A stretch of 63,580 nt of DNA, counting the filler, from Sphacelaria rigidula (lineage: Eukaryota): NCBI GenBank assembly GCA_964200075.2. It is 9 parts of 9 records of this genome, joined end to end, with 100 filler letters (N's around TTAATTAATTAA, not from the genome) between each part and the next. Parts side by side here need not be neighbours in the genome. Positions count along the whole stretch, not along the records: positions 49,531 to 56,505 come from CAXNAA020017128.1; 8 more parts are not named here. One strand, 5' to 3'. Both the position numbers and the translations under genes were made by a program. Shown in pieces: positions 11,784-56,729 of this stretch (position 1 is the first letter of the stretch; each line of letters opens with the position of its first letter). The notes under the pieces were generated by a model. That model was not told the DNA's origin. It saw only the letters and a list, made by a program, of their open reading frames with translations, and did no database searches.

Positions 11784-11854
11784 GCTTAAATGGTTCAATG
11801 GTAGAATACATGATTGCCATTCATGTGATCGGGGTTCGATTCCCCGTTTAAGCA
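11784..11854 (+). tRNA. trnG-GCC: tRNA-Gly(GCC)
   Basis: Full cloverleaf: acceptor GCTTAAA/TTTAAGC, D arm GTTC/GAAT, anticodon stem CATGA/TCATG with GCC at 11816-11818, T arm CGGGG-TTCGATT-CCCCG. Discriminator A, then a T-run. Confidence 0.88.
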
Positions 11855-13247: not shown

Positions 13248-13511
13248 TAGCACAGCTAACCTAGAGTACACCGCGCCCCGTGATCGTTCATTCCACCACC
13301 TCCGTCATCATCTCACATCATTCCGGGACGTCAGGTACGGTCTGGGTGACGGTACCCGTTTGTGGTGGTTTGTTAGAACAATCAAGATGCACGAATTCTT
13401 GCCCGATCGACCCGAACATCAGTGTGCGTGTACAGTACATATCAAACGGTACCTGCTTCGGCGTGTGGCTTATCGCCGCTCGAAATGCACGGCCGCATCA
13501 AGTATTGGGGG

Positions 13512-13891
13512 ACAACATATCATTTCCCAAAAATGAATGGGGTTTCACCAGGGCACTTAACATTACACGTCGCAACTTGACGTTACACGTAACTTGACGT
13601 TACACGTAACTTGACGTTACACGAGGATTCCTGTTCAAAGTCACGTCAAATCAAATCAAGCATCGGGTAAGGCTATTATAGTACTAGTACTAGGGTGGGG
13701 GACCACGTCGACAACATATCATTTCCCAAAAATGAATGGGGTTTCACCAGGGCACTTAACATTACACGTCACAACTTGACGTTACACGTAACTTGACGTT
13801 ACACGCGGATTCCTGTTCAAAGTCACGTCAAATCAAATCAAGCATCGGGTAAGGCTATTATAGTACTAGTACTAGGGTGGGGGACCACGTC
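13512..13891. repeat. ~199-bp tandem duplication containing a 17-bp minisatellite
   Basis: Copies start at 13512 and 13711. AACTTGACGTTACACGT occurs 3x in the first copy and 2x in the second. Confidence 0.9.
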
Positions 13892-13968
13892 GTCCCCCAC
13901 CCTAGTACTAGCCTGGGTTAAGTTGTGACGTGTAACAAACTTTGTGACGTGTAACATCAAATGCCCTA
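13748..13968. mobile_element. MITE with 5S rRNA-like inverted segments (rearranged relative of 53273-53484)
   Basis: CAGGGCACTT...AAATGCCCTA termini, GTTACACGT subterminal motifs, CTAGTACTAGGGTGGGGGACCACGT in inverted arrangement, and the shared CCTGTTCAAAGTCA..TCAAATCA spacer. Confidence 0.7.
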
Positions 13969-14153
13969 CAGTAGTCAGCGTCAGAAGTATGCAGAATCCG
14001 ATATTTCTTAGTTTCTCAAAGATTGTCTAAATTTGTTTTGCTTGCCACCGCTCNNNNNNNNNNNNNNNNNNNNNNNNNNNNNNNNNNNNNNNNNNNNTTA
14101 ATTAATTAANNNNNNNNNNNNNNNNNNNNNNNNNNNNNNNNNNNNNNNNNNNN

Positions 14154-31288: not shown

Positions 31289-34200
31289 TGTGACGAAATG
31301 ACGCCGTCACGTTGAGTTGGTAGTGATGGTCTGGATAATGACCGGGGACACTAGGTTGGTACCCTGGCGTGTCTAGGAGGTTGTGCCTACGAGGGCACTC
31401 CTAAATAATGAGAATGTTGTAAAGGCTGACAACTGAAACTGAGGCCAGCAAGACTGGGAAGTCTCTCAACAACAGTGACCCACCAGTCCTCCTTCTGGGT
31501 GGCCTCAAAATATCGATATTATTGCTAGTGTTAGTGCTAGAAACCTTCCGAAAAGGATTTCGGCGGAGTGAGTCCGGCAGCTGGGGACAACCTGACATCA
31601 CGGACGCGTGGAGGGGCTTCAAGCTGGTGGTGGCTGTAGAAAGGCGGCTGACCTGTGATTGATCCACACTGGAGACTTGCTGAAGCTGCGTGCAGCGGGA
31701 GTTTGGAGGCTCTTACGACGGTGTGGTGCGGCGACGACGCAAGGAAGTGTACCATTCGCGAAGGCCCGCTGGCCTGCAAAAGGTTCGCAGGTAGCCAGTG
31801 CAGCTTTGGCGACTTGTGCCTGTACTACGACCAGCGTGACGCCCGTGGTTATGCGGGAAGAGTTGCGACCTCCCCAATACGGGGATAGGTACTCAGAGAG
31901 TGCATCTCGCACTTTTCTTACGAGGTAGTTTGAGTACAAGAAGCATGTGAAGCACGCTAACGCAGGGGGTGTTGTGCGGCATCAGGTGGTGCCAATGGCT
32001 CGACAAGTGCCAAAGTATGTGCAGAAAGTGCTTGCTCATTTGGAGCATAACAAAATCACAATCACCCCGCCACAATTGGTTGCGGCGATCAGGAAGCATG
32101 CTGGGCATGCGGCGGGCGCTTGCTACTGTTGTGGCCAGGTCGGCCATTACGCGTGCGATTGTCCAACGTCTTCCGGTGGAGAGTCTGGGCAGTCTCATGC
32201 CGCGCGCCATCAGCATCGTCAGCACAAGGGCAAAAGACGAGATGGTCGTGGTGGCGGGGGCGGATCCTCCGGCGATGGGGGGGGTCGCAGTCGAGTCCTC
32301 GACAGCAGCAGCAGCAGCAGCAGCAGCAGGGGCAGCGGCGTCAGCATGGGCCTGGTTCTGGGTCCGGCACCACCGTAGGTGCCGCTGTTCCGCAACGAGC
32401 GGTGCAGGTGGGACCGACTTCTACAGTGTCGAACACCACGCCGGCGCCAGTGATGGCGCCGGCGGCGACACCGACAGCAGCGCCAGGCGCGACGCCTGCT
32501 GACACGCTGGTCGGAGGTTCGCCAAATTCTCGGTCTGCTGGCTGGGAGTTATACCCGCCGGCGGTGCCGTTTGAACCTGCCGGGGCGTCTTCGCCTGCGC
32601 AGGTTGCGCAGCCGTGGCGTCCAGTGGGGTTAGTGGCGCATCGGGCGGCGAATGAATTGCCAGTGAAGTTGGCGGACAACTACGTTCCTGCGGAGCTGTC
32701 TCTCAAATCAACGGGAGCGTGGAGCCATTGCGATTCGGGCTAAGTGGGATCCAGGCGCCCATATGGCGGGTCATGTGAGTCTGCCGGTGCAGATTGTAGA
32801 GATGTTCGCGCGTCTTCTCCCGGGTGTGCTGCTGCGCATTCCGTCTTCGCTCGGGACGCGGCAGGCCGTCCCCGCGTCGGGTTAGCATGTTTACGTCACA
32901 GAGCGTACTGTTCCGCTGCAGCTGACGTTCACGACTTCCTGGGGGCCGGCGCAGTTGCCTCCGATCTCGTTTGCGATCATGCCGGGGTCGGCTGGCGTTA
33001 TCCTTCTGGGGTCGCCGATGGTTCATGGTATTGGTGTCGACGCTCGGTGCTTGTGGGACTCCATCAAGACGGGAATATCTCCGCCTGGTCTCAGCTTGGA
33101 GACATCCGCTCTTTTGGGCAGTCGTCGTGTGAGTTTGTCCGTAGATGCTTTTCAGGAGGCTGAAGGGTAGATGACCGAGGAGCGGAATGCGGCGGTGGAA
33201 CGCTTGTTAGAGCACGGCTCGGAAGGTCGCGCCGGCGGAGAGCGTGACGGATGCTGGGGCGACAGGCCTCAGCGTCTCAAAAGCGGAGCGCCTGCGCGGC
33301 ATATTGCATTGCCGCGTCAACGCGTTTCCTCGCGCGCTGCGGGGTAATCCCCCTGCGCGCATGGAGCCCACGCGTGTTCAGCTAAAAGATGGGCCATCCG
33401 TGGTAAAGGCGGATCTGCGGTGGTACGATCCAGTGAAGTCGAGTTGGTTGGCATTGTGCGTAGCGGCTCTGTTGGCGCTCGGGTTGGTGTTACGGAATAT
33501 GCAGGCGGGGTGGTCCAGTCCAGATATGGCGTTTCAGAAGGAGGCTGCATCGTGGACGGAGGGCAGGCTGCAGGCGTGGGCGGCAGCGAAGGATCTGGTG
33601 GCTCATGCCGTGACGCTGCTCCATCCTCGTCCTGATTGCCAGGTGTTTATGTTTCCGGATGCATCTGAGTGCCATTGGGGTAGTTTGGTCATGCAGGTGC
33701 CTACAGTTGAAATTCAAATGCCTGTGCGCGCTGTGGCTTTGTATGGTCCGTGTGAACCTGATCACTTGATGCCGTCCAAATCTGTTGTCCGCCAAGCGCA
33801 GCGAAACGACCTCGGGGCCGAAGATGCGGATGTGCAATCTTTCGAGTCGGACTTTGGTACTGCTATCTTACACAGTGAAGGTCTGTTTCGTGTGCATGGC
33901 CGAAACGTTTTGTGGATTCCGAGTTCTGACAAGCAGTTACAGGTACGTCTAATGGTTTGCACGCACATGCGCGATGCCGGGCATCGTGGTGTGGCTGCGA
34001 CGCTCGTGCGCTTGCAAACGTTTCGTGTCTGGCAGGGGATAGAAACTCATGTGGGCGAATTTATCCGCCAGTGTCTTCACTGTGCTGACTCGGGGGTAGG
34101 AGATGTTGTTCCCCGCCCGCTCGGCGAAACGGTCCATGGGACCATACCGAATGAAGTCGTTCATTTTAACTTCTTGTACGGGGGTGAGAGTGGCCCGCTA

Positions 34201-35280
34201 GCTTCCCTAGGTTTGTCGGAGGATGCTTGGTTTCGATAAATTTTGGTAATCATGGATGATTTTAGCAACTTCGTGGCTCTGGAACCAGTAGCAGTGTACT
34301 GCTGAATCAACTGCTGCATCTTTGCTGAATTGATGCAAAACTTTGGGGGTGTCACGTGTGTGGGTGAGTGATACCGCCACGCATTTCACGAATGCAATCT
34401 TGGTCCGATTGCGAGAGGCTTTGCGCGTTGATCACCAGCTTGCGGTAGCGTATTCTCCGTGGTCTAACGGTACGTGCGAACGCATGGTCAAGAAAGTAGT
34501 TCGTGCTCTTCGCTCTATTGTTCTCGAGCAGTGTAAAGCGGTTTCCGAGTGGGTGGATGTGTTGCCGGCGGTGCTATGGGCGCTTAATACAGCGTATCGT
34601 CGTCGTTACGGTAGTACGTCGTACCACGTGATGTTGGGTCGTGCTCCTCGGACGTCTTTCTTGGTCCTGGCGTCTTCGTCGGCGGGGGGAATGGAAGTGT
34701 GATGTTTTGGACGATGTTCAAATTAAGAGTACACTGCAAGGAGTCTTGGACTGGCAAGAACACTTCCACGTTCAAGTGCAGGATCGTGTTGCTGCTGAAC
34801 ATGCGCGTAGACGTGAGGGATCCTCGTCGGGGCTGGAATTGCCGAAGTTTGAGGTAGGCGACTATGTCTTTTATGCACGCGTGCGTCGTCCGGGTGTTAC
34901 GCCCAAGTTGATGGCGACGTGGACAGGTTCATGCAGAGTGGTTGGTACTCACCACCCGCACGTGTTTGAGATTCAGAACATTGTTTCGGGTCGTGTTCAG
35001 ACCGCCCATATAGCTCGCTTGCGTTTTTATGCAGACCCGCAGCTTAATGTTACGGCTGACGTTAAGGACGTGTTCCAGCATGCTTTCAATCGGGGGCAAT
35101 TTCAGATGGCTGGTATTGTCCGAGTGGCAGAAGCAGATGATCGTTCGTTGATCGTGTTGATCGACTGGGTTGGTTTCGAAGTTGAGGAGCGCACGTGGGA
35201 GCCTTTCAAGGATATTTTGAGAGTCATCCTACGATAGGTGGGGGGGTATTTGGTTGCACGAAAAAAGAGGCTCATAAGTG
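31289..35280 (+). mobile_element. Ty3/Gypsy LTR retrotransposon with chromodomain, internally deleted and degenerate
   Basis: Gag zinc knuckle CYCCGQVGHYACDC (~32120-32163) and protease DSG (~32735). RT N-terminus, PDAS RNase H motif, integrase HHCC (HMRDAGH...CLHC) and core (IMDDFS, VSDT, NGTCER). WTGS (GPY/F), chromodomain LIDWVGFEVEERTWEP, and a G-rich PPT after the stop at 35237. The left boundary is approximate. Confidence 0.92.
33244..35237 (+). pseudogene. Gypsy pol pseudogene (truncated RT/RNase H, integrase, chromodomain)
   Basis: ORFs 33244-34239, 34343-34702 and 34641-35237 are linked by stops and frameshifts. Confidence 0.9.
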
Positions 35281-47290: not shown

Positions 47291-48986
47291 ACACACTCAC
47301 GTTGAAGAGGTAACGCGATTAGTGCTCATTGTACAGCATAGGCGTTCAATCAGTGAGAGCGTAAGCAAAAAAAAAAAAAGGTTGCGGCTTACCGCCCGGC
47401 GCTTTTTTCGCAAGCCTTTCTCTGCTTCGATTTCTCGGAGTTCGGTGCATTTTTGAGCCGCAGGTTCTTTGTTTTTTGTCTCTCTCTGGGTTGTCTATTA
47501 TTATTTGGCAATCGCAGCTTCTATCGTACACATGTGAAGCACATGACGTTCAAACGGTAACGCGATTATACTTCCTGACACCATAGGCGTCTGACTCGTG
47601 TAAGCGCGACATGTGCGTGCGTCATATCAATTTGATTTCAATCAACAACAAACAATAATAGATGCTGTGTTTATGGTTGCCTGTTTGCAGGCTTCCGTAC
47701 GGCGCTTTTTCGTCGGTCTTTCTGTGTTCCTTAGATTCTATCCCCCGGGATTCGGGGTTCAGAGAATCTAGCAGTCGATTTGCCGCGGTTCGGTAAATTT
47801 TGGAGTCGAATTGTATTGTTTCTGTGCTGTGGCCGTCTATGCTGTGTGACACATTCGGGTGTTCCGCATTCTCCACACGTTTAAAACGTGTAACAATATT
47901 CAGTGTGTTTCATCCACCATTCTTCCGCGCTCTCAAAGTTCGTTCGCGTTCCTTAATACCAATCATGCCACACGCATGTCGGATCTTCCTTCTTCTGCTC
48001 ATCGCATATAACACAGTTTCATGACCGATAAGCACATCAAATCTCTGGCTCAACCTCTTCTTGGTAGGAGCATCATTCGCTTAACCATCTCCCAAATTGC
48101 ATTCATTCCTTTCCGTGCCTATCGTGGAGGACGGGGCTGCCTATCGGCGGCCCCGTCCGATCCTTGTAAGTACATACACACACACGGGCTACACTCACAA
48201 TATCCGTACAACTACAGTAGAACTCAGCAGAATTTTTGGATTCGTCTTTGCAAGACAGTTTGGCAATGGGAGGGTGATCGACTTCAATTTTGACTGTATG
48301 AGCCGCCATCACGCCTGATTTGAGAAGAACTGGCGTCGAATCAACGGAGAGGTCCATGCATTTGAGGGACACAGAAAGTGCTGTTTAGCATTTGCAGTAC
48401 TGACCGCAAGGAAGGGCAAGGGTACCTTCGATACATAGAGTACTCACGCCTGCCAGACCGCGAAAATGAACCACGCAGAAGCCCCGTTGAAGACGACGAC
48501 AGCCATCGCCACCAACATCGACAAGAACTTCATCAGCTCCGAGTGGAAGCAGACTTCAATCCATCAGGTAGAGTACCGCCATGTCGCGCTATACGGCCGC
48601 CCACCATGCAGTTGGGACGTGTCTTGCTGTGCACTGCGGCCCAACCGCAGTTCGGTCTAGCTAACCTTATTATGGTGATGTCTGAGGACGTGTTGGTTGA
48701 AGCTGTGGCCAAAAATGAATCCGCTTGCTCAGCTGGTCATTTTTCTGCCTGTTGGTCACTCTGCAGATGAAGCTTGTGCTGGATGTATAATTGATACTTC
48801 GTTTATCGTGTCGAGTACGAGTACGTTGCTACAACTGGCAGCCGGCGATTTCGTTGAAATGTCGTATCCCGCATGTGCGCTGATATTTGAGACTAGAAAC
48901 GGTCAGAAAGTGTGCGTAGATCCCGCCGCAATGCTACATTCCGCCGCATTTGTTTTAGACTTCCAGATGAATGTTCGAATGTTCCT

Positions 48987-50548: not shown

Positions 50549-51185
50549 CTGTAGCAAAAACAAAAGGAAAAAAGGAACGCGATTGAGTACAAAAGTTAAA
50601 AAGTGAGGAAAGTCAGGGGGAGGGTGGGGGGAGGGGGGGATAAGAAAAAAGGCGAGCAGACAGAAAACACGACACCGGACTAGGCGGAATGAGTACCCAA
50701 CCGAACCAATTCACAACACACAACAGTGCCGTCACGACCACTAATAAACAAAAAATCTAAATTCAATCTGCACAAAATTGACACAATTTCGGACATTCTC
50801 TACTAGTAAATTTCATTTCGTGTCCTCAGTCATGAATACATCAGAAACAGTCAACCGTGACCTCTTTCCCCCAACTCCCAACCCCACCCCCCCAACCCCG
50901 ACTCCTCTCCACCTCCACCTTTCCCGCCGCACCCGCCATTAGTAGTACACCACACATACATCACATACATCATAAACACGCACACAAGAGACAAATACAC
51001 ACTTAGGGGGGCAGCATTGCCTGACCTGAGATCTACCCTACAGTCAGTCCACGACCATCAAAACATGCGCAGGTGCGGCCGGCGTCTTGTGATCCGACTT
51101 GAAGACAACAACAAGGGGGTGATGACAGACACCAGGTGCGCGGCCTATCTTCACCGCTACACCCCCAGCCCACTCCACACGGCAC

Positions 51186-51422
51186 CTGCAAGAGGATCAG
51201 TTCCGGAGCGCGGTACCAGCGAGTGACAACGTGCTTGGTGAGCTGGCGCTTCAAGGTTCTCGTGGCCTCCTGTGGCGGCTCATCGTCCAAGTCTGTCTCC
51301 ACGTCTCCCTGCCCCTGCCCCTGTCCTTGCCCTGCCGTCGTTCCGTGCCCTACCCCTCCGTCGGCGCCGGGAGCGGCGACGCCGGGCGGCAAGGAAGACG
51401 GTTTCACCGGGGAGCAGGCCAG
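51186..51422 (-). CDS. Atypical MAP kinase, exon (activation loop and subdomain VIII)
   Basis: CAG|LACSPVKP...RTLKRQLTKHVVTRWYRAPELILLQ|GTGCC, 237 bp, phase 0. Confidence 0.93.
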
Positions 51423-51895: not shown

Positions 51896-52057
51896 CTTTC
51901 CGCCCGAGGAATCCTTGGAGTCGTTATCTGCGCCGGAGGGCTGGGGCATGCGAACGGGCTGTTGGGCTGGGGGAGGAGGATCTTGAGTCACCACTCGCGA
52001 CAGCCCGAAGTCGCAAATCTTGAGGGTGCAATTCTCGTTCAGCAATATGTTCGCAGG
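51896..52057 (-). CDS. Atypical MAP kinase, exon (subdomains VIb-VII)
   Basis: [26 protein letters not shown]...SSGGK|GTGAC, 162 bp, phase 0. Confidence 0.95.
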
Positions 52058-52636
52058 CTGCGGAGGAGAATCAAACACAAAAACAAGAGAGCAACAGTAA
52101 GCAGAGAGACGCAGCGGGCAAGCAACGGCAAGCAAAAAAAAGGCAGCTATGTGCTATTAGCTATTAGTGATTGACTGGTTGATCGATTGATCGTTGCACA
52201 TTAACTGATTGATTCCCGAGCATCCTACATGACCGTGGTCATTAGATAGCCATATGTACCCAAGGTGAACAAAATGGAAACGCTCGCCAAAAACGAAAAA
52301 AAAGTGTAGAAAAAATGAAGAAGCGACAACAATTTCTTGGTACAATTCATGCATATGGGCTGGTACCTCAGTTGTCTGATATCTTATTCCGACCATTTTA
52401 GTACATTTTCATTGTTGTCAACAAGGACATAACACCAGCTGTTCAAACGCGCTTGTTACCGATACACAATGCCCCTTCATGGTGATTGGCAGCACTTTTA
52501 ACCAAATACAAGCGCACCGCGAGTGTTCTAGGTCGTCCAACACACTAGTGATCCCTGTTTATCGTGGAATCACACCTCCCCCCCCCCCCCCCCGTCCCTA
52601 TCGTAGCGTGACTCCAGAACGAAAAAAAATATCGAC

Positions 52637-52783
52637 CTTCATATCCCTGTGGACAACGTGGGCGCTGTGCACGAACTTGAGCCCCAGCAGCATTTGGTAC
52701 ATGAAGACCTTAATGTGCTCATCCGTCAGGAACTGCGGCGAGGCTATCAGCTTGAATAGGTCGGTATCCACATACTCGAAAAC
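52637..52783 (-). CDS. Atypical MAP kinase, exon (subdomains V-VIb)
   Basis: CAG|VFEYVDTDLFKLIASPQFLTDEHIKVFMYQMLLGLKFVHSAHVVHRDMK|GTCGA, 147 bp, phase 0. Confidence 0.95.
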
Positions 52784-53272
52784 CTGAAAATGGGCAGAAC
52801 CGGGGGGAGGGGGGGGGTAGGACCAAAACATGAGTGTCTCCAGAGGTGCGAAGGGGTGTTCCTCCTACGCATCAATCAAGACCGAAAACCACACGACCCA
52901 TCTAGACGTCTTACAGGCCACACACAGCACGGCTCGTGGCCTACCTACCCAACGTACGAGGAACCCCGCAAAACACGGCACAACCCGGGAAGGTTCAACA
53001 ACGTTCATCAAGCAATCCCTGTGATTTTTGCTCAAATGACATAACAAAAGTAATCGTATAATACTCGAAATAAATCGACCGTCTCGATCGTCTCGAACGA
53101 TCAAGAACGACCGAGCTCGATCAACTCAGAATCAAAGAACGATGTTAATGCACTCGCTAAGGTTTATTCCCCCTTGTGCTTTCGCTTTCCCCGAACGGGA
53201 GTGTGACATCAAGTCCCTCCCTCAAGGACTCAACCCAATGCTCTCTCCCCGTCCGCCCCCTCCCAAAAATTA

Positions 53273-53484
53273 CAGGGCACTGATCGTTACACGTGAAAAA
53301 AAATTGTTACACGCCAGAAGTTAAGCCAGGCTAATACTACGGTGGGAAATCACGTGGGGAGCCCTGATTTGACTTGACTTTGAACAGGGCTCCCCACGTG
53401 GTCCCCCACCGTAGTACTAGCCTGGCCCGACGCTTGACCTTTGGCGTGTAACGAATGTTGTGACATGTTATGACAAGTACTCTT
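53273..53484. mobile_element. hAT-like MITE with 5S rRNA-derived inverted arms (intronic)
   Basis: CAGGGCACT...AGTACTCTT termini with 8-bp TSD AAAAATTA / GAAAATTA. Arms 53317-53366 (+) and 53385-53441 (-) read GAAGTTAAGC..(TCGGG)CCAGGCTAGTACTACGGTGGGGGACCACGTGGGGAGCCCTG. Confidence 0.8.
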
Positions 53485-54351
53485 GAAAATTAAGAGCCAC
53501 CGAATGTCGCAAGATCCATAGGCTGCCATGACGGATAAGTAAAATTCCGGGTGCTGCAGACAGCCGCCGCGACGAGAGAAAGACTAAAGTGGTTCAATGT
53601 CACAAACGCATGAATCTGAAGGGATTAGTTGGTTACGAGGACCGCCGCATAAGGGGTCGACTGACGCACTTTACGGGGCAAACCCACTCGTCGTTTACAG
53701 TGATATGATGCCATCACTTAACCCCAAGAAAACCATTGTGCACACCGGTTCAAAACGGGTATTTTTCATCAGCTCTGGAGGGTTGGCACCATCACACCGA
53801 GTACATCGCACGGTAAAGCGCCTTATAATATGTTTTGCTATTATCTTTGTTGTTGTTTACTTTGTCTTTTCTGTTTTTTCGCGGATACCACCGCACAGAA
53901 GGGAAAGGGTTCATACCCTGGACAATAGAATACACAGTCAAAAAGTGTACAGCGCACAGTATCGACTCTTGTGCCTATTTCCACAGGCAATAGATTTCAT
54001 ACTGTATGCAGTACATTGTTCCACAATAGCGTTCATCGAGGAACTGCCTCTTCCATATTATTATTTTTTTCGTGTGGATGCAGTGTACCACCACATCAGA
54101 GGGAATAATTTTCCCCAAATATCCGTCGAGGAATTCCCATTTTTCAGTTTTTTCGTGTGACATACCAGAAACAAAAGCTCCAAATCTGGGGGCAACAACG
54201 ATCACAAAACTCACCGAACCAAACCTGAACTAACCAAACCATGCCAAACATATATATATATATATATCGAACGATCGATTCACAAGATGCGGAAGAAAAG
54301 AAAAGAAAAAGACACGCTCGAAATAAAAAATAACACAATCGAAACACTCAC

Positions 54352-54474
54352 GAGGTACAGGTCCCTGAATCCGTCGAAGCTGGGGGGCAGAATGACGTCC
54401 CGTAGTTCGATTATCTCGGCGTGCTTCATGTGCCGAAGGATGTACATCTCGCGGTAGATCCGCTTAGCATCCAC
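54352..54474 (-). CDS. Atypical MAP kinase, exon (subdomains III-IV)
   Basis: CAG|VDAKRIYREMYILRHMKHAEIIELRDVILPPSFDGFRDLYL|GTGAG, 123 bp, phase 0, with the MAPK signature AKR.YRE. The N-terminal exon(s) were not found on the contig. Confidence 0.95.
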
Positions 54475-54613
54475 CTGCACAGCCACCACGCCGACGCATA
54501 ATCTAAACATCATCAGCGGAAAAAGAAAATCGAGAACCCCGCGATTCCCATGAACGCAATTTTGACTGGGTCACATATTAGGTTTGAATAGATGCCATAC
54601 ACTTAGACGTCAC

Positions 54614-54728: not shown

Positions 54729-55979
54729 TTGGCCATATCCTCTCTGTTTAGCAGCAAAATCTCGATGACAACATACCACGTATTCCGCAGCTCTCAACCC
54801 CCGACACACTAATATAGCACAACGAAGGAAGTCATTTTCCACATGCTGTATTTACGGTGGTCCACCCACTGTCCACCAGAGGAGGCCTGGCGCCCTGTTT
54901 CAACCCTTTGACCTCCCGGTTGCATTTTCCGAGTTTTACTCCGATTCTCGAGGTAAAAAAAATGAAACGGATTCCACGGATGAACCACCCTGACGATCGA
55001 AGGGTAGAGGGGCTGAGAAAAAATCTAAAATCCTGACCCTTCGGGAACCGTTGATGGAAAAACGATAATTTACAATCGAAGTTTTCTTGCGCAAAACATG
55101 GTTGCTTTTCAGCAACTGTTTTCTCAACGCAGCCCACCACAACGGTACACCACTCCAAGTTCAATTATAGTACTAATGTGAAAAAAATGTGCACCGAACT
55201 CGAAGTAATTTTTTTGCGGTGACGAAAGCTCGCACATGGGACGATGTACTGTTTTCGCGAGTCCGGAAAGAGTTAACATGGTCGCAATAAAGTCAACCCC
55301 GGACGCGTCGCACAAGTACTCCACACACAGCCATCATGACCGTTTTAAATCATTCGAGAACAACACGCATCACCTAATGTTCTGCCCAGTCGTTCAACAA
55401 GCCTTCGAAATGATGCTACTCCATTCATGTCGCCGCACATGTATTACGGTGGCCGGCCGCAGGCAGCATTATTGTTGGAATTTCGAAAATGGAGATGAGG
55501 CAGCGGCACGTTCTAGATACAGTAGTTTTCAGATGAAATAGCGAATGTTCGTCACTACTTCGTAGTCGGTGATTCTTCAATAGTTTTCTCACGTGCCACC
55601 GCTCATCCCAGCGAGCACTTGCGCCCGGAGTTAGAGATCGGGAGATACTACGCATCCGCTCCACATTTCGACATAAAAAAAACACTTCCGCGCTAAATTT
55701 CGAACGACTCAGCAAGGGCGCACCCACCCCAGCAATGATGATGATGCACCCTCAGCAATTTATTCTGTATCTACGAGTCATTTGAGGCTATTCCTCGTCT
55801 GTTCTTCTTGGTGTCTCTCTTCTTATTTCTGTTGTGTGTTGTTTGTTTTGTGCCTGGGGCCTCAGAAGAAACGATGAGAAACTTTCTGTCTTGGAAGGAA
55901 AAGCTGGAACGGTATCGGAAACACGAGTCCACGTCTGTGGCCACGGGTTCGAGAGATCGCACCAATGTGCGGAAACAAC

Positions 55980-56115
55980 CACACCCTGAACAATAGAAGA
56001 CAGTCAAAAAGTGTACTGCGTACAGTATCGACTATTGCGCCTATTGCAACAGACAATAGATTCCATACTGTACGTAGTACATTCTTTTACAATGGAATCT
56101 CTTGTCTAGGGTGTG
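55980..56115. mobile_element. 8-bp-TSD MITE (CACACCCTG family)
   Basis: CACACCCTGAACAA ... TTGTCTAGGGTGTG with a perfect TSD GAAACAAC at 55972-55979 and 56116-56123. Confidence 0.85.
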
Positions 56116-56729
56116 GAAACAACATCAACAAACGCAAGCCAATGTTCCCGTCAGACGTTTCACCCCTCCCCTTTTATCGTCAGCCTTTTCACCGCCCCGC
56201 CCCGGCTTTGTAGAGGGATGCAAGGCCAATGGTCTTGCATATCTTTCCCTTGTTCGGGACGACTCAGTCCGTCGTATCAAGGGATCATTCCATCCATCCA
56301 ATCTCCCCCAGTACATGCCTTCACATTTTTGGTGACGCAGATCTGGACTAGAACTGCCGCACTGCATCAACGTTTCGTCGCATCCTCGTGTTTTCAAAGA
56401 TGGAAAGCAAATACTCCGGAGGGGGAGGGGGGGGGGGGGGGGAAAAAATACACAATACACTTAAGGTGGCGTAAAAATTTTCACCCCTGCAAACCAAAAA
56501 AAAAGNNNNNNNNNNNNNNNNNNNNNNNNNNNNNNNNNNNNNNNNNNNNTTAATTAATTAANNNNNNNNNNNNNNNNNNNNNNNNNNNNNNNNNNNNNNN
56601 NNNNNGGACACAATCCCGAGGAGCGGTTGATTCTCATTTCAAAATACGTTCTCATTTTTCTGGCAACCCTGTTATATCACGCACATCGAGAACGCCTTCT
56701 ATTTAAGCGACTAATATCCGCCGTCACAC

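Follow-up and report, generated by a model that had tools for sequence, protein, structure and literature searches.

A 2024 review of the relations between rDNA and transposons (PMC10946416) tabulates elements with rDNA-derived sequence in 18 rows. In its Table 2, 16 rows are assigned a '5S rDNA promoter' and all of these are retrotransposons, either SINEs or TRIMs of the Cassandra/Ajax kind; the sole DNA transposon/MITE row is Pokey, with IGS repeats, and a figure legend of the review names 'DNA transposons' in general terms. A preliminary description of the locus studied here held that the known 5S carriers are retroelements, which agrees with this table (16/16 rows) and with the literature considered here. 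The listed elements that carry a 5S promoter (SINEs, Cassandra and the Ajax TRIMs) move via RNA, and transcription is the point of the promoter.

Here, we analysed a 63,580-nucleotide stretch of Sphacelaria rigidula DNA, which is called the window as a whole, and found at 53273-53484 what is well supported as a TIR-type MITE with 5S-derived inverted arms that lies in an intron. Cassandra of plants and Ajax of ribbon worms resemble this element in being non-autonomous and in containing a ~70-bp 5S core twice per element, one in each terminal repeat (PMC10853983, PMC10946416); this core extends over the A-box, IE and C-box and is the 5S-derived portion common to all Cassandra elements (PMC10853983). 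However, their repeats are direct LTRs, their movement is RNA-mediated and their 5S transcription is reported, whereas the element described here has TIR-like ends, a putative 8-bp TSD and repeats that are inverted in place of the direct long terminal repeats of the Cassandra/Ajax type. The 5S SINEs (SINE3/AmnSINE1, OS, MEG, Ped-1, 5S-Sauria and HaSE3) are likewise dispersed and contain 5S sequence with the internal promoter (PMC10946416). In contrast to their 5S-derived 5' head, which serves as transcription unit, their LINE-related tail and absence of TIRs, the 5S pieces of our element are internal and inverted, and it has TIRs and neither the 5S nt 1-47 nor a tail.

Among DNA transposons, Pokey/mPok (piggyBac, Daphnia) is comparable as the only DNA transposon/MITE in the table of rDNA carriers (PMC10946416), but it has IGS-derived repeats instead of 5S and targets 28S rDNA. 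Dada elements are also DNA transposons tied to multicopy small-RNA genes; they target U6, U1 and tRNA genes, are without TIRs, produce 6-7-bp TSDs and carry a mimic of a target-gene motif in their subterminal inverted repeats (PMC3706591). While Dada inserts into U6, U1 or tRNA genes, the present element has internal 5S sequence in both orientations and is inserted in an intron. Dada-type target-specific insertion was considered and ruled out, as the intron flanks are not 5S, the 5S pieces are internal and inverted, and TIRs are present. In full-text searches of the literature, including that on brown-alga transposons, neither a MITE nor any other DNA transposon with arms derived from 5S came up. 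A 5S-promoter segment on a DNA-transposon chassis is therefore new relative to that literature, and may already be curated in Repbase, Dfam or a species repeat library.

Anatomy of the element and its insertion site

The element extends from 53273 to 53484/5 (212-213 bp) and is a strong foldback without coding capacity. Its parts and its flanks are as follows.

53265-53272, unstranded: putative TSD, left copy (AAAAATTA), 7/8 against 53485-53492
53273-53285, plus strand: left terminal inverted repeat CAGGGCACTGATC, alignable to the three other family termini
53286-53313, plus strand: left subterminal region with two GTTACACG (53286-53293 and 53306-53313) flanking an A8 run (53295-53302)
53319-53366, plus strand: left 5S-derived piece (5S nt 48-107 minus nt 56-65), by alignment to the L001 5S gene (described below)
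53367-53384, unstranded: 18-nt loop, within a spacer conserved in the family (53365-53388, minus-strand sequence CCTGTTCAAAGTCANGTCAAATCA)
53385-53444, minus strand: right 5S-derived piece (5S nt ~48-107), with 53387-53432 near-identical to 5S
53445-53484, minus strand: right subterminal region, with GTTACACG at 53445-53452, plus the decayed terminal repeat of this end, by the terminus HMM
53485-53492, unstranded: putative TSD, right copy (GAAAATTA), 7/8 against 53265-53272

A repeat search resolved the foldback into inner arms (53325-53366 and 53385-53426) of 42 nt with 90% complementarity, separated by the 18-nt loop, and outer arms (53299-53326 and 53432-53459) of 28 nt with 79% complementarity. 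As single-stranded DNA, 53273-53485 is predicted to fold with -62.7 kcal/mol, compared to -24.9 +/- 3.2 kcal/mol for 200 dinucleotide shuffles (z -11.8), none of which (0/200) folds as well. The arm complementarity and this z value bear out the 212-bp foldback that had been proposed. The hairpin centre (53345-53408) is spanned by none of the DNA contigs listed, which thus give it no independent confirmation.

At the left end, 53273-53280 reads exactly CAGGGCAC. The right end, which begins with CAAGAGTAC when reverse-complemented, is decayed and matches the left terminus poorly, but it can still be aligned to the other three family termini, from which it differs mostly by G>A / C>T changes, and the terminus HMM matches 53483-53441 with an E of 9.8e-11. 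Because of this decay, the proposed 'CAGGGCAC-type ends' are literally true for one end only. For the proposed 8-bp TSD, the flanks AAAAATTA (53265-53272) and GAAAATTA (53485-53492) are identical at 7/8 positions. A flank match of at least 7/8 at the TSD spacing is found at 47/61,536 window positions (7.6e-4) when the boundaries are fixed and at 667/63,168 (1.1e-2) when each boundary is given a freedom of +/-2 nt. The arm sequence quoted in the preliminary description turned out to be a composite. Both of its portions exist, with GAAGTTAAGC found only in the left arm (53319-53328) and TCGGGCC...GGGGAGCCCTG (also written ...GAGCCCTG) only in the right arm as the reverse complement of 53385-53430, and the whole string is on neither arm.

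Of the 11 sequencing runs listed as containing the window, one of them labelled 'algae metagenome' and none recorded as RNA, four were compared with it as contigs, X1, X3 and X4 being DNA and X6 presumed RNA. An X6 contig of 5,304 nt joins 51185-51422, 51896-52057, 52637-52781 and 54350-54476 and is thus spliced across the element, which was correctly placed in a host intron; this intron (52782-54349) is 1,568 nt long and belongs to a MAP-kinase-like gene on the minus strand. Two exons border it.

52637-52781, minus strand: host exon on the low-coordinate side of the intron, encoding part of the kinase domain; the X6 contig joins 52781 to 54350
54350-54476, minus strand: host exon on the high-coordinate side, from the same X6 contig and its translation

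The minus-strand translation is open and shows a MAP-kinase-like catalytic domain, identified visually by its HRDxKPxN and DFG motifs and a further one of WYRAPE type. The first two introns of the gene read CT...AC on the plus strand. The joint 52781|54350 has no GT-AG on the minus strand as aligned, and a canonical pair needs one T more than the contig has. On the strand of the gene, the RNA from 53491 to 53295 is predicted to fold with -109.2 kcal/mol (z -13.3), and this hairpin would be part of the pre-mRNA of the gene. The effect of this single copy on the host is likely small.

The intron of the element and the neighbouring introns also hold other very abundant repeats. Matches of the hairpin to miRNA families (mir-629, 42.6 bits with a gathering threshold of 72; mir-1954, 39.7 bits with a threshold of 99; and others) were rejected as generic long-hairpin matches far below threshold.

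A second copy in the window

BLASTN of the element region against the window identified a related locus at 13549-13967. The two family loci are 40 kb apart in the window and have unrelated flanks, and the similarity between them ends at the termini. The second locus contains a rearranged copy and a duplicate of part of it.

13748-13968, plus strand: second family member, rearranged (CAGGGCAC ... TGCCCTA), with 5S nt ~67-98 in both arms and no TSD
13511-13709, plus strand: tandem duplicate of the second copy's left flank and left arm, with 99% identity to 13710-13892

All four termini, two from each copy, are homologous terminal inverted repeats that align as CAGGGCAY, followed by TTACACGT and, ~20 nt further in, by a second GTTACACG. 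This last motif occurs 11 times in the window, compared to 1.85 times expected, and 11 was reached by 0/100 shuffles. Ten of the 11 sites are inside the two elements and point inward, being on the plus strand in the left arms and on the minus strand in the right arms; from this pattern, the subterminal repeats could be transposase-binding sites. The eleventh GTTACACG, at 47887-47894, stands outside any element. When the window was searched by nhmmer with the arm profile, 12 matches were obtained, six of them with E < 1e-3 and all six in the two loci, and with the arm and terminus profiles no further copy was detected in the window at E < 1e-3.

In both copies, ~10 nt of the 5S piece are missing from one arm, namely the left arm of the element at 53273-53484 and the right arm of the second copy, and are kept in the opposite one (right and left, respectively). 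As this asymmetry is common to both copies, they appear to descend from one ancestor that was already asymmetric and not from independent inverted duplications. The 24-nt spacer CCTGTTCAAAGTCANGTCAAATCA has three exact matches in the window with 0 expected, at 53365-53388 on the minus strand and at 13630-13653 and 13812-13835 on the plus strand. It forms the loop in the 53273-53484 element and is upstream of the 5S piece in the second copy; variant contigs of the DNA runs have the same tandem-like order of spacer and 5S as the second copy. The arms are covered by dozens of distinct variant contigs in the three DNA runs, for example 63 at 53334 and 46 at 53439 in X1.

The second copy (13748-13968) lacks a TSD, as GGTTTCAC is on its left and CAGTAGTC or ACAGTAGT, depending on the placement of the end, on its right. 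Its tandem duplicate is ~90 nt from the N-run/linker, and the duplication of 13511-13709 and 13710-13892 may be an assembly artefact. We found 0 loci for the 24-nt spacer pattern in metagenome, prokaryote-genome and viral contig collections and 0 loci for the terminus pattern in viral and prokaryote-genome contig collections. Since the family patterns are absent from those collections, mobility rests on the anatomy, and no empty site or insertion polymorphism was seen. The family comparison covers the two loci of the window, with a TSD in 1/2 copies. These data uphold the proposed MITE anatomy, that is, a non-autonomous TIR element of a family with at least two members in the window. No transposase domain was detected in the 17 largest ORFs of the window (0/17), where no autonomous partner was seen either. 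Two ORFs at 33211-35237 have weak LTR-retroelement domains. For an LTR-element ORF, the first Atlas match scored 0.86 with diatoms as the most frequent phylum, a similarity too weak to indicate a lineage.

Derivation of the arms from a 5S rRNA gene

By sequence comparison, it is confirmed that the arms derive from the 3' part of a 5S rRNA gene (nt ~48-107 of ~119). The Rfam model RF00001, searched over 53200-53560 with E-value reporting, matched the right arm on the minus strand with 25.8 bits (E 0.0028), and the right arm alone scored 23.1 bits; the confidently aligned part is almost entirely in the model's 3' half. For the left arm, no match was obtained at E <= 10. The RF00001 check suggested in the preliminary description thus gave a match below the gathering threshold of 38 bits for the right arm and none for the left arm; the arms are fragments, not genes. 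Over the whole window, Rfam at gathering thresholds reported one tRNA and nothing else.

The 5S BLAST check suggested alongside it was passed by both arms. An exact 30-mer of the right arm has a single occurrence in the metagenome collection, in L001, where it is contained in a bona fide 5S gene (L001:332-450) that scores 99.7 bits over the full RF00001 model. As L001 was fetched via this 30-mer, 30 of the 46 matching positions of the right arm follow from the retrieval, and the evidence consists in the location of the 30-mer in a genuine gene and in the extension of the match beyond it. BLASTN of the L001 5S gene against the whole window gave 14 matches at E <= 10, five of which have E < 1e-3 and are all in element arms.

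53432-53387, minus strand: 44/46, E 1.5e-16, 5S nt 60-105
53325-53364, plus strand: 34/40, E 7e-8
13916-13885, minus strand: 29/32, E 2.5e-7
13684-13708, plus strand: 24/25, E 3.1e-6
13866-13890, plus strand: 24/25, E 3.1e-6

In a local alignment of the left arm to nt 48-105 of the L001 5S gene, 42/58 columns are identical, including a 10-nt gap at nt 56-65. In the MAFFT alignment, the match of the right arm reaches the box-A stretch across a gap of 3 nt. With the host consensus, the 5S match reaches nt 107 (GCCCTG).

The host contigs relate the right arm to the 5S genes of the organism itself. Unique neighbouring contigs have a depth of ~20-30 (X1), ~10 (X3) and ~27-35 (X4), and the summed depth at 53392, which is not a copy number, is 290,336 (X1), 230,779 (X3) and 335,188 (X4). 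At this position, 83-93% of the depth in X1, X3 and X4 has T and not the C of the element. The host DNA contigs that match 53385-53433 have a very high summed depth and continue into 5S on both sides, with loose contig ends at 53433 in 35 (X3) and 50 (X4) contigs and at 53385 in 66 (X1), 61 (X3) and 97 (X4) contigs. By eye, the consensus behind 53433 is, when reverse-complemented, identical at 30/30 positions to L001:360-389, which is 5S nt 29-58, and the consensus before 53385 reads as the final ~10 nt of a 5S gene and then a T-run (15/18 to the 3' end and flank in L001). This continuation indicates that the right arm at 53385-53433 is a near-exact copy of the host 5S, with the host gene continuing where the element does not.

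Over their outermost ~50 nt, the four arms are no more similar to 5S nt 1-47 than shuffled sequences are, with 389, 910, 985 and 998 of 1000 shuffles scoring as well. We therefore rejected the reading of a whole arm as a mutated full-length 5S gene, to which the 1-120 cmscan alignment had pointed.

State of the promoter region and competing readings

Nucleotides 48-107 span the equivalents of the Xenopus box A (+50-64), intermediate element (+67-72) and box C (+80-97). Since this segment covers the A-box, IE and C-box, as in the Cassandra core, the layout of the 5S 3' half that had been claimed for the arms is right, and they correspond to the promoter-equivalent region at nt ~48-107. The further claim of two convergent 5S promoters holds for the convergence of the two 5S pieces and not for their integrity, as neither control region is intact. 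In the left arm, nt 56-65 are deleted and the box-C stretch (nt 80-97) has three changes; in the right arm, the box-A stretch has substitutions and is followed by a 3-nt deletion, with 44/46 identity over nt 60-105. All three boxes at the native spacing are found in neither arm of the 53273-53484 element. Because both control regions are damaged, the 5S pieces of this copy appear to be passengers, and judged from these boxes the copy is unlikely to function as a Pol III promoter. The 5S segment that was captured starts where the box-A stretch starts and takes in the entire promoter-equivalent region, and Cassandra elements share a ~70-bp core of similar kind (PMC10853983), which argues against a random passenger.

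In summary, the element is probably an old copy, now decayed, from a family of small non-autonomous foldback transposons of the cut-and-paste (TIR) kind, most likely hAT, with the 5S pieces as passengers. Each arm consists of a terminal repeat of ~13 nt (CAGGGCAY...), the inward-pointing GTTACACG in two or three copies and a 50-60-nt piece of host 5S, and the two 5S pieces converge on the 18-nt loop. A transposase supplied in trans would have moved the element and created the 8-bp duplication. The 5S piece would have been acquired once, by the ancestor of both copies, presumably when 5S rDNA, which is very abundant, served as filler or in template switching. The only likely molecular effect would be a ~60-bp hairpin in the intron of the host pre-mRNA.

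The assignment to hAT, which is based on one 7/8 TSD and the CAGGG terminus, is plausible. The termini read CAGGG, TAGGG and CAAGA, compared to the hAT form (C/T)A(A/G)NG, and the 8-bp TSD is seen once, at 7/8. Ac/Ds-type hAT elements have an 8-bp TSD, a YARNG-type terminus and short subterminal repeats. hAT-type MITEs and Ds-like elements resemble our element in the repeated short subterminal motifs, the small size, foldback potential and intronic location, and would also share with it the putative 8-bp TSD and a terminus of the (C/T)A(A/G)NG type; it differs from them in that its internal arms are 5S rDNA and its TSD is from one copy. It could instead be a TIR derivative of another superfamily, for example Mutator-like or P-like (both of which can also give 8-bp duplications), or an undescribed one, as the TSD length comes from one copy at 7/8 with none in the second, no transposase was found in the window, and CAGGG-type termini are not known to be exclusive to hAT. 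We regard this as unlikely, however, because the combination of an 8-bp TSD, a short terminus of the YARNG type and short subterminal repeats is classic for hAT. Without any mobility, the foldback could have formed from a dispersed 5S pseudogene (orphon) that was duplicated locally in inverted orientation; 5S genes are extremely abundant in this organism, and inverted duplications arise spontaneously. Such an orphon is very improbable, since each arm ends in ~46 nt of non-5S sequence, the termini, GTTACACG and the CAGGGCA end are common to a locus 40 kb away with unrelated flanks, the homology between the loci halts at the termini, and dozens of distinct DNA contigs vary in the parts that are not 5S-identical (46 at 53439 in X1). 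That the 5S likeness arose by chance would be in line with the RF00001 score of 25.8 against a gathering threshold of 38, and with the tRNA as the only result of the whole-window gathering search, but the 44/46 match (E 1.5e-16) to a 5S gene of 99.7 bits and the continuation of the host 5S contigs on both sides leave this reading practically negligible.

A different reading of the same anatomy takes the 5S pieces as working modules, so that the family, at least in its intact members, would be the cut-and-paste counterpart of Cassandra/SINE3. Each control region would recruit TFIIIA, TFIIIC and Pol III, transcription would start near the end of the element and pass through the foldback, and the product would be a hairpin RNA that matches 5S; alternatively, the element would benefit from the pieces as a chromatin boundary or a site for Pol III factors. 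In its favour, the captured nt ~48-107 comprise the promoter-equivalent region and little else, and the Cassandra core is likewise ~70 bp (PMC10853983). The distance from the terminus to the box-A stretch is ~46-48 nt in each arm, the same as from the 5S start site to box A, so that a start would fall at the edge of the element, and the first minus-strand T-run past the right arm and the foldback, T8 at 53302-53295, would terminate a hairpin transcript of ~190 nt. In addition, 3/4 arms retain the core CTAGTACTAsGGTGGGGGACCAC with 22/23 to 25/28 identity, while the termini are ~70% alike. The X6 contigs (presumed RNA) over the core have the element-type C at 53392, with the rDNA-type T in 0/306 of the depth, and the family-majority bases at 53334 and 53350, and there is no X6 cover in the bins flanking the element (52912-53112 and 53515-53715). 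This fits the presence of other family members in RNA, in contigs that reveal neither strand nor start nor polymerase. Against the working modules, both control regions are damaged and their RF00001 matches are below the gathering threshold or absent, the T8 run is not kept in the second copy, the X6 contigs, which may derive from Pol II transcripts, are uninformative on strand, start and polymerase, and a cut-and-paste element has no obvious gain from being transcribed. We therefore judge the working-module reading to be quite improbable. As a proposal of wider reach, the family could be a cut-and-paste analogue of Cassandra in which the arms of the intact members would be working 5S promoters that give a hairpin RNA matching the 3' half of 5S rRNA or TFIIIA/TFIIIC sites in introns, and this we would call a long shot.

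A DNA transposon family that has the same promoter-bearing 5S part in both arms would mean that this segment may be repeatedly picked up for mechanistic reasons, the candidates being abundant 5S rDNA as a repair template or a pseudo-end; alternatively, the 5S segment may give an advantage that is unrelated to retrotransposition. Elements of this kind would disperse 5S-like sequence among genes, where it can mislead the annotation of 5S rDNA, FISH and read-clustering, and would put long rRNA-identical hairpins into introns.

The boundary of the 5S homology is of note in this respect. The homology stops exactly at GCCCTG (nt 102-107), the reverse complement of the terminal CAGGGC, and each arm is therefore bounded by CAGGGCAC ... 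GAGCCCTG (53273-53366, with its mirror at 53385-53485). The transposase may have used the GCCCTG hexamer of the 5S rDNA as a pseudo-end during the capture, or the correspondence may be a coincidence. CAGGGCWC occurs seven times in the window, compared to 3.6 times expected, and seven was reached by 9/100 shuffles.

Octamers and duplication at the 5S-armed elements

In the 5S-armed element, a foldback MITE whose arms hold pieces of the 5S rRNA gene, both 5S pieces end inwardly in an octamer, GAGCCCTG (53359-53366) in one and CAGGGCTC (53385-53392) in the other. These inner-end octamers match the terminal CAGGGCAC of the element at 7 of 8 positions; therefore, each single arm is flanked by terminus-like inverted octamers.

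The second 5S-armed element, a rearranged member of the same family (13748-13968), is associated with a tandem duplication at 13511-13892 with 99% identity, in which the unit consists of the 38-nt left flank together with the left arm of the element. The duplication junction is the exact centre of a palindrome (..CCACGTC|GACAAC..), and a run of N lies ~90 nt away. The duplication is either a rearrangement provoked by the hairpin or an assembly artefact. At 14054-14153, N-runs are broken by TTAATTAATTAA, which is a six-frame-stop scaffold linker and not native sequence; the N content of the whole window is 704.

Host intron and an abundant foldback repeat

The intron of the minus-strand MAP-kinase-like gene that hosts the 5S-armed element spans 52782-54349; its borders meet at 52781|54350 in the spliced RNA contig, without GT-AG on the gene strand. 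A canonical GTGAGT...CAG pair is located 1-2 nt off this joint, and its use would insert one T that is absent from the contig and would disrupt the reading frame. The adjoining exon, 52637-52781, is bracketed by an inverted pair made up of a ~16-nt C-run and, at a distance of ~210 nt, a G-rich run (52575-52598 and 52801-52822). The summed contig depth reaches thousands in bins 52309-52710, indicating that another repeat adjoins this exon.

A further foldback-type repeat, far more abundant than the 5S-armed element, was observed as two copies or part-copies whose ends resemble CACACCCTGRACAATAGA and the complement of that sequence:

55981-56118, copy or part-copy of the foldback-type repeat
53917-54017, copy or part-copy of the same repeat

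Bin 55927-56127 has a summed DNA depth of ~80,000-205,000, compared with ~10-35 in unique contigs; in the run guessed to be RNA, the summed depth of this bin is 16,081. Contigs with loose ends number in the hundreds at 56003 and 56081, where the consensus sequences appear to be mutually reverse-complementary. A direct connection between ~53934-53941 and ~56002-56014 is present in many contigs.

Other features of the window and a metagenomic 5S gene

Two further plus-strand features were found in the window:

11784-11854, plus strand, tRNA gene (RF00005, 70.7 bits)
33211-35237, plus strand, ORFs that weakly match an integrase zinc-binding domain (PF17921, 32.4 bits), an RNase H-like domain and a chromodomain

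The second 5S-armed element is ~1.7 kb downstream of the tRNA gene. Judged by these domain matches, the ORFs resemble a decayed Ty3/gypsy-type (chromovirus-like) retroelement; for a retroelement ORF, the closest Atlas cluster has a weak score of 0.86, and diatoms are the most frequent phylum there.

In L001 (1-830), a metagenome contig carrying a bona fide 5S gene, a T-run immediately follows the gene, and the flanks are AT-rich with many short repeats of the GTAC/TACT type.
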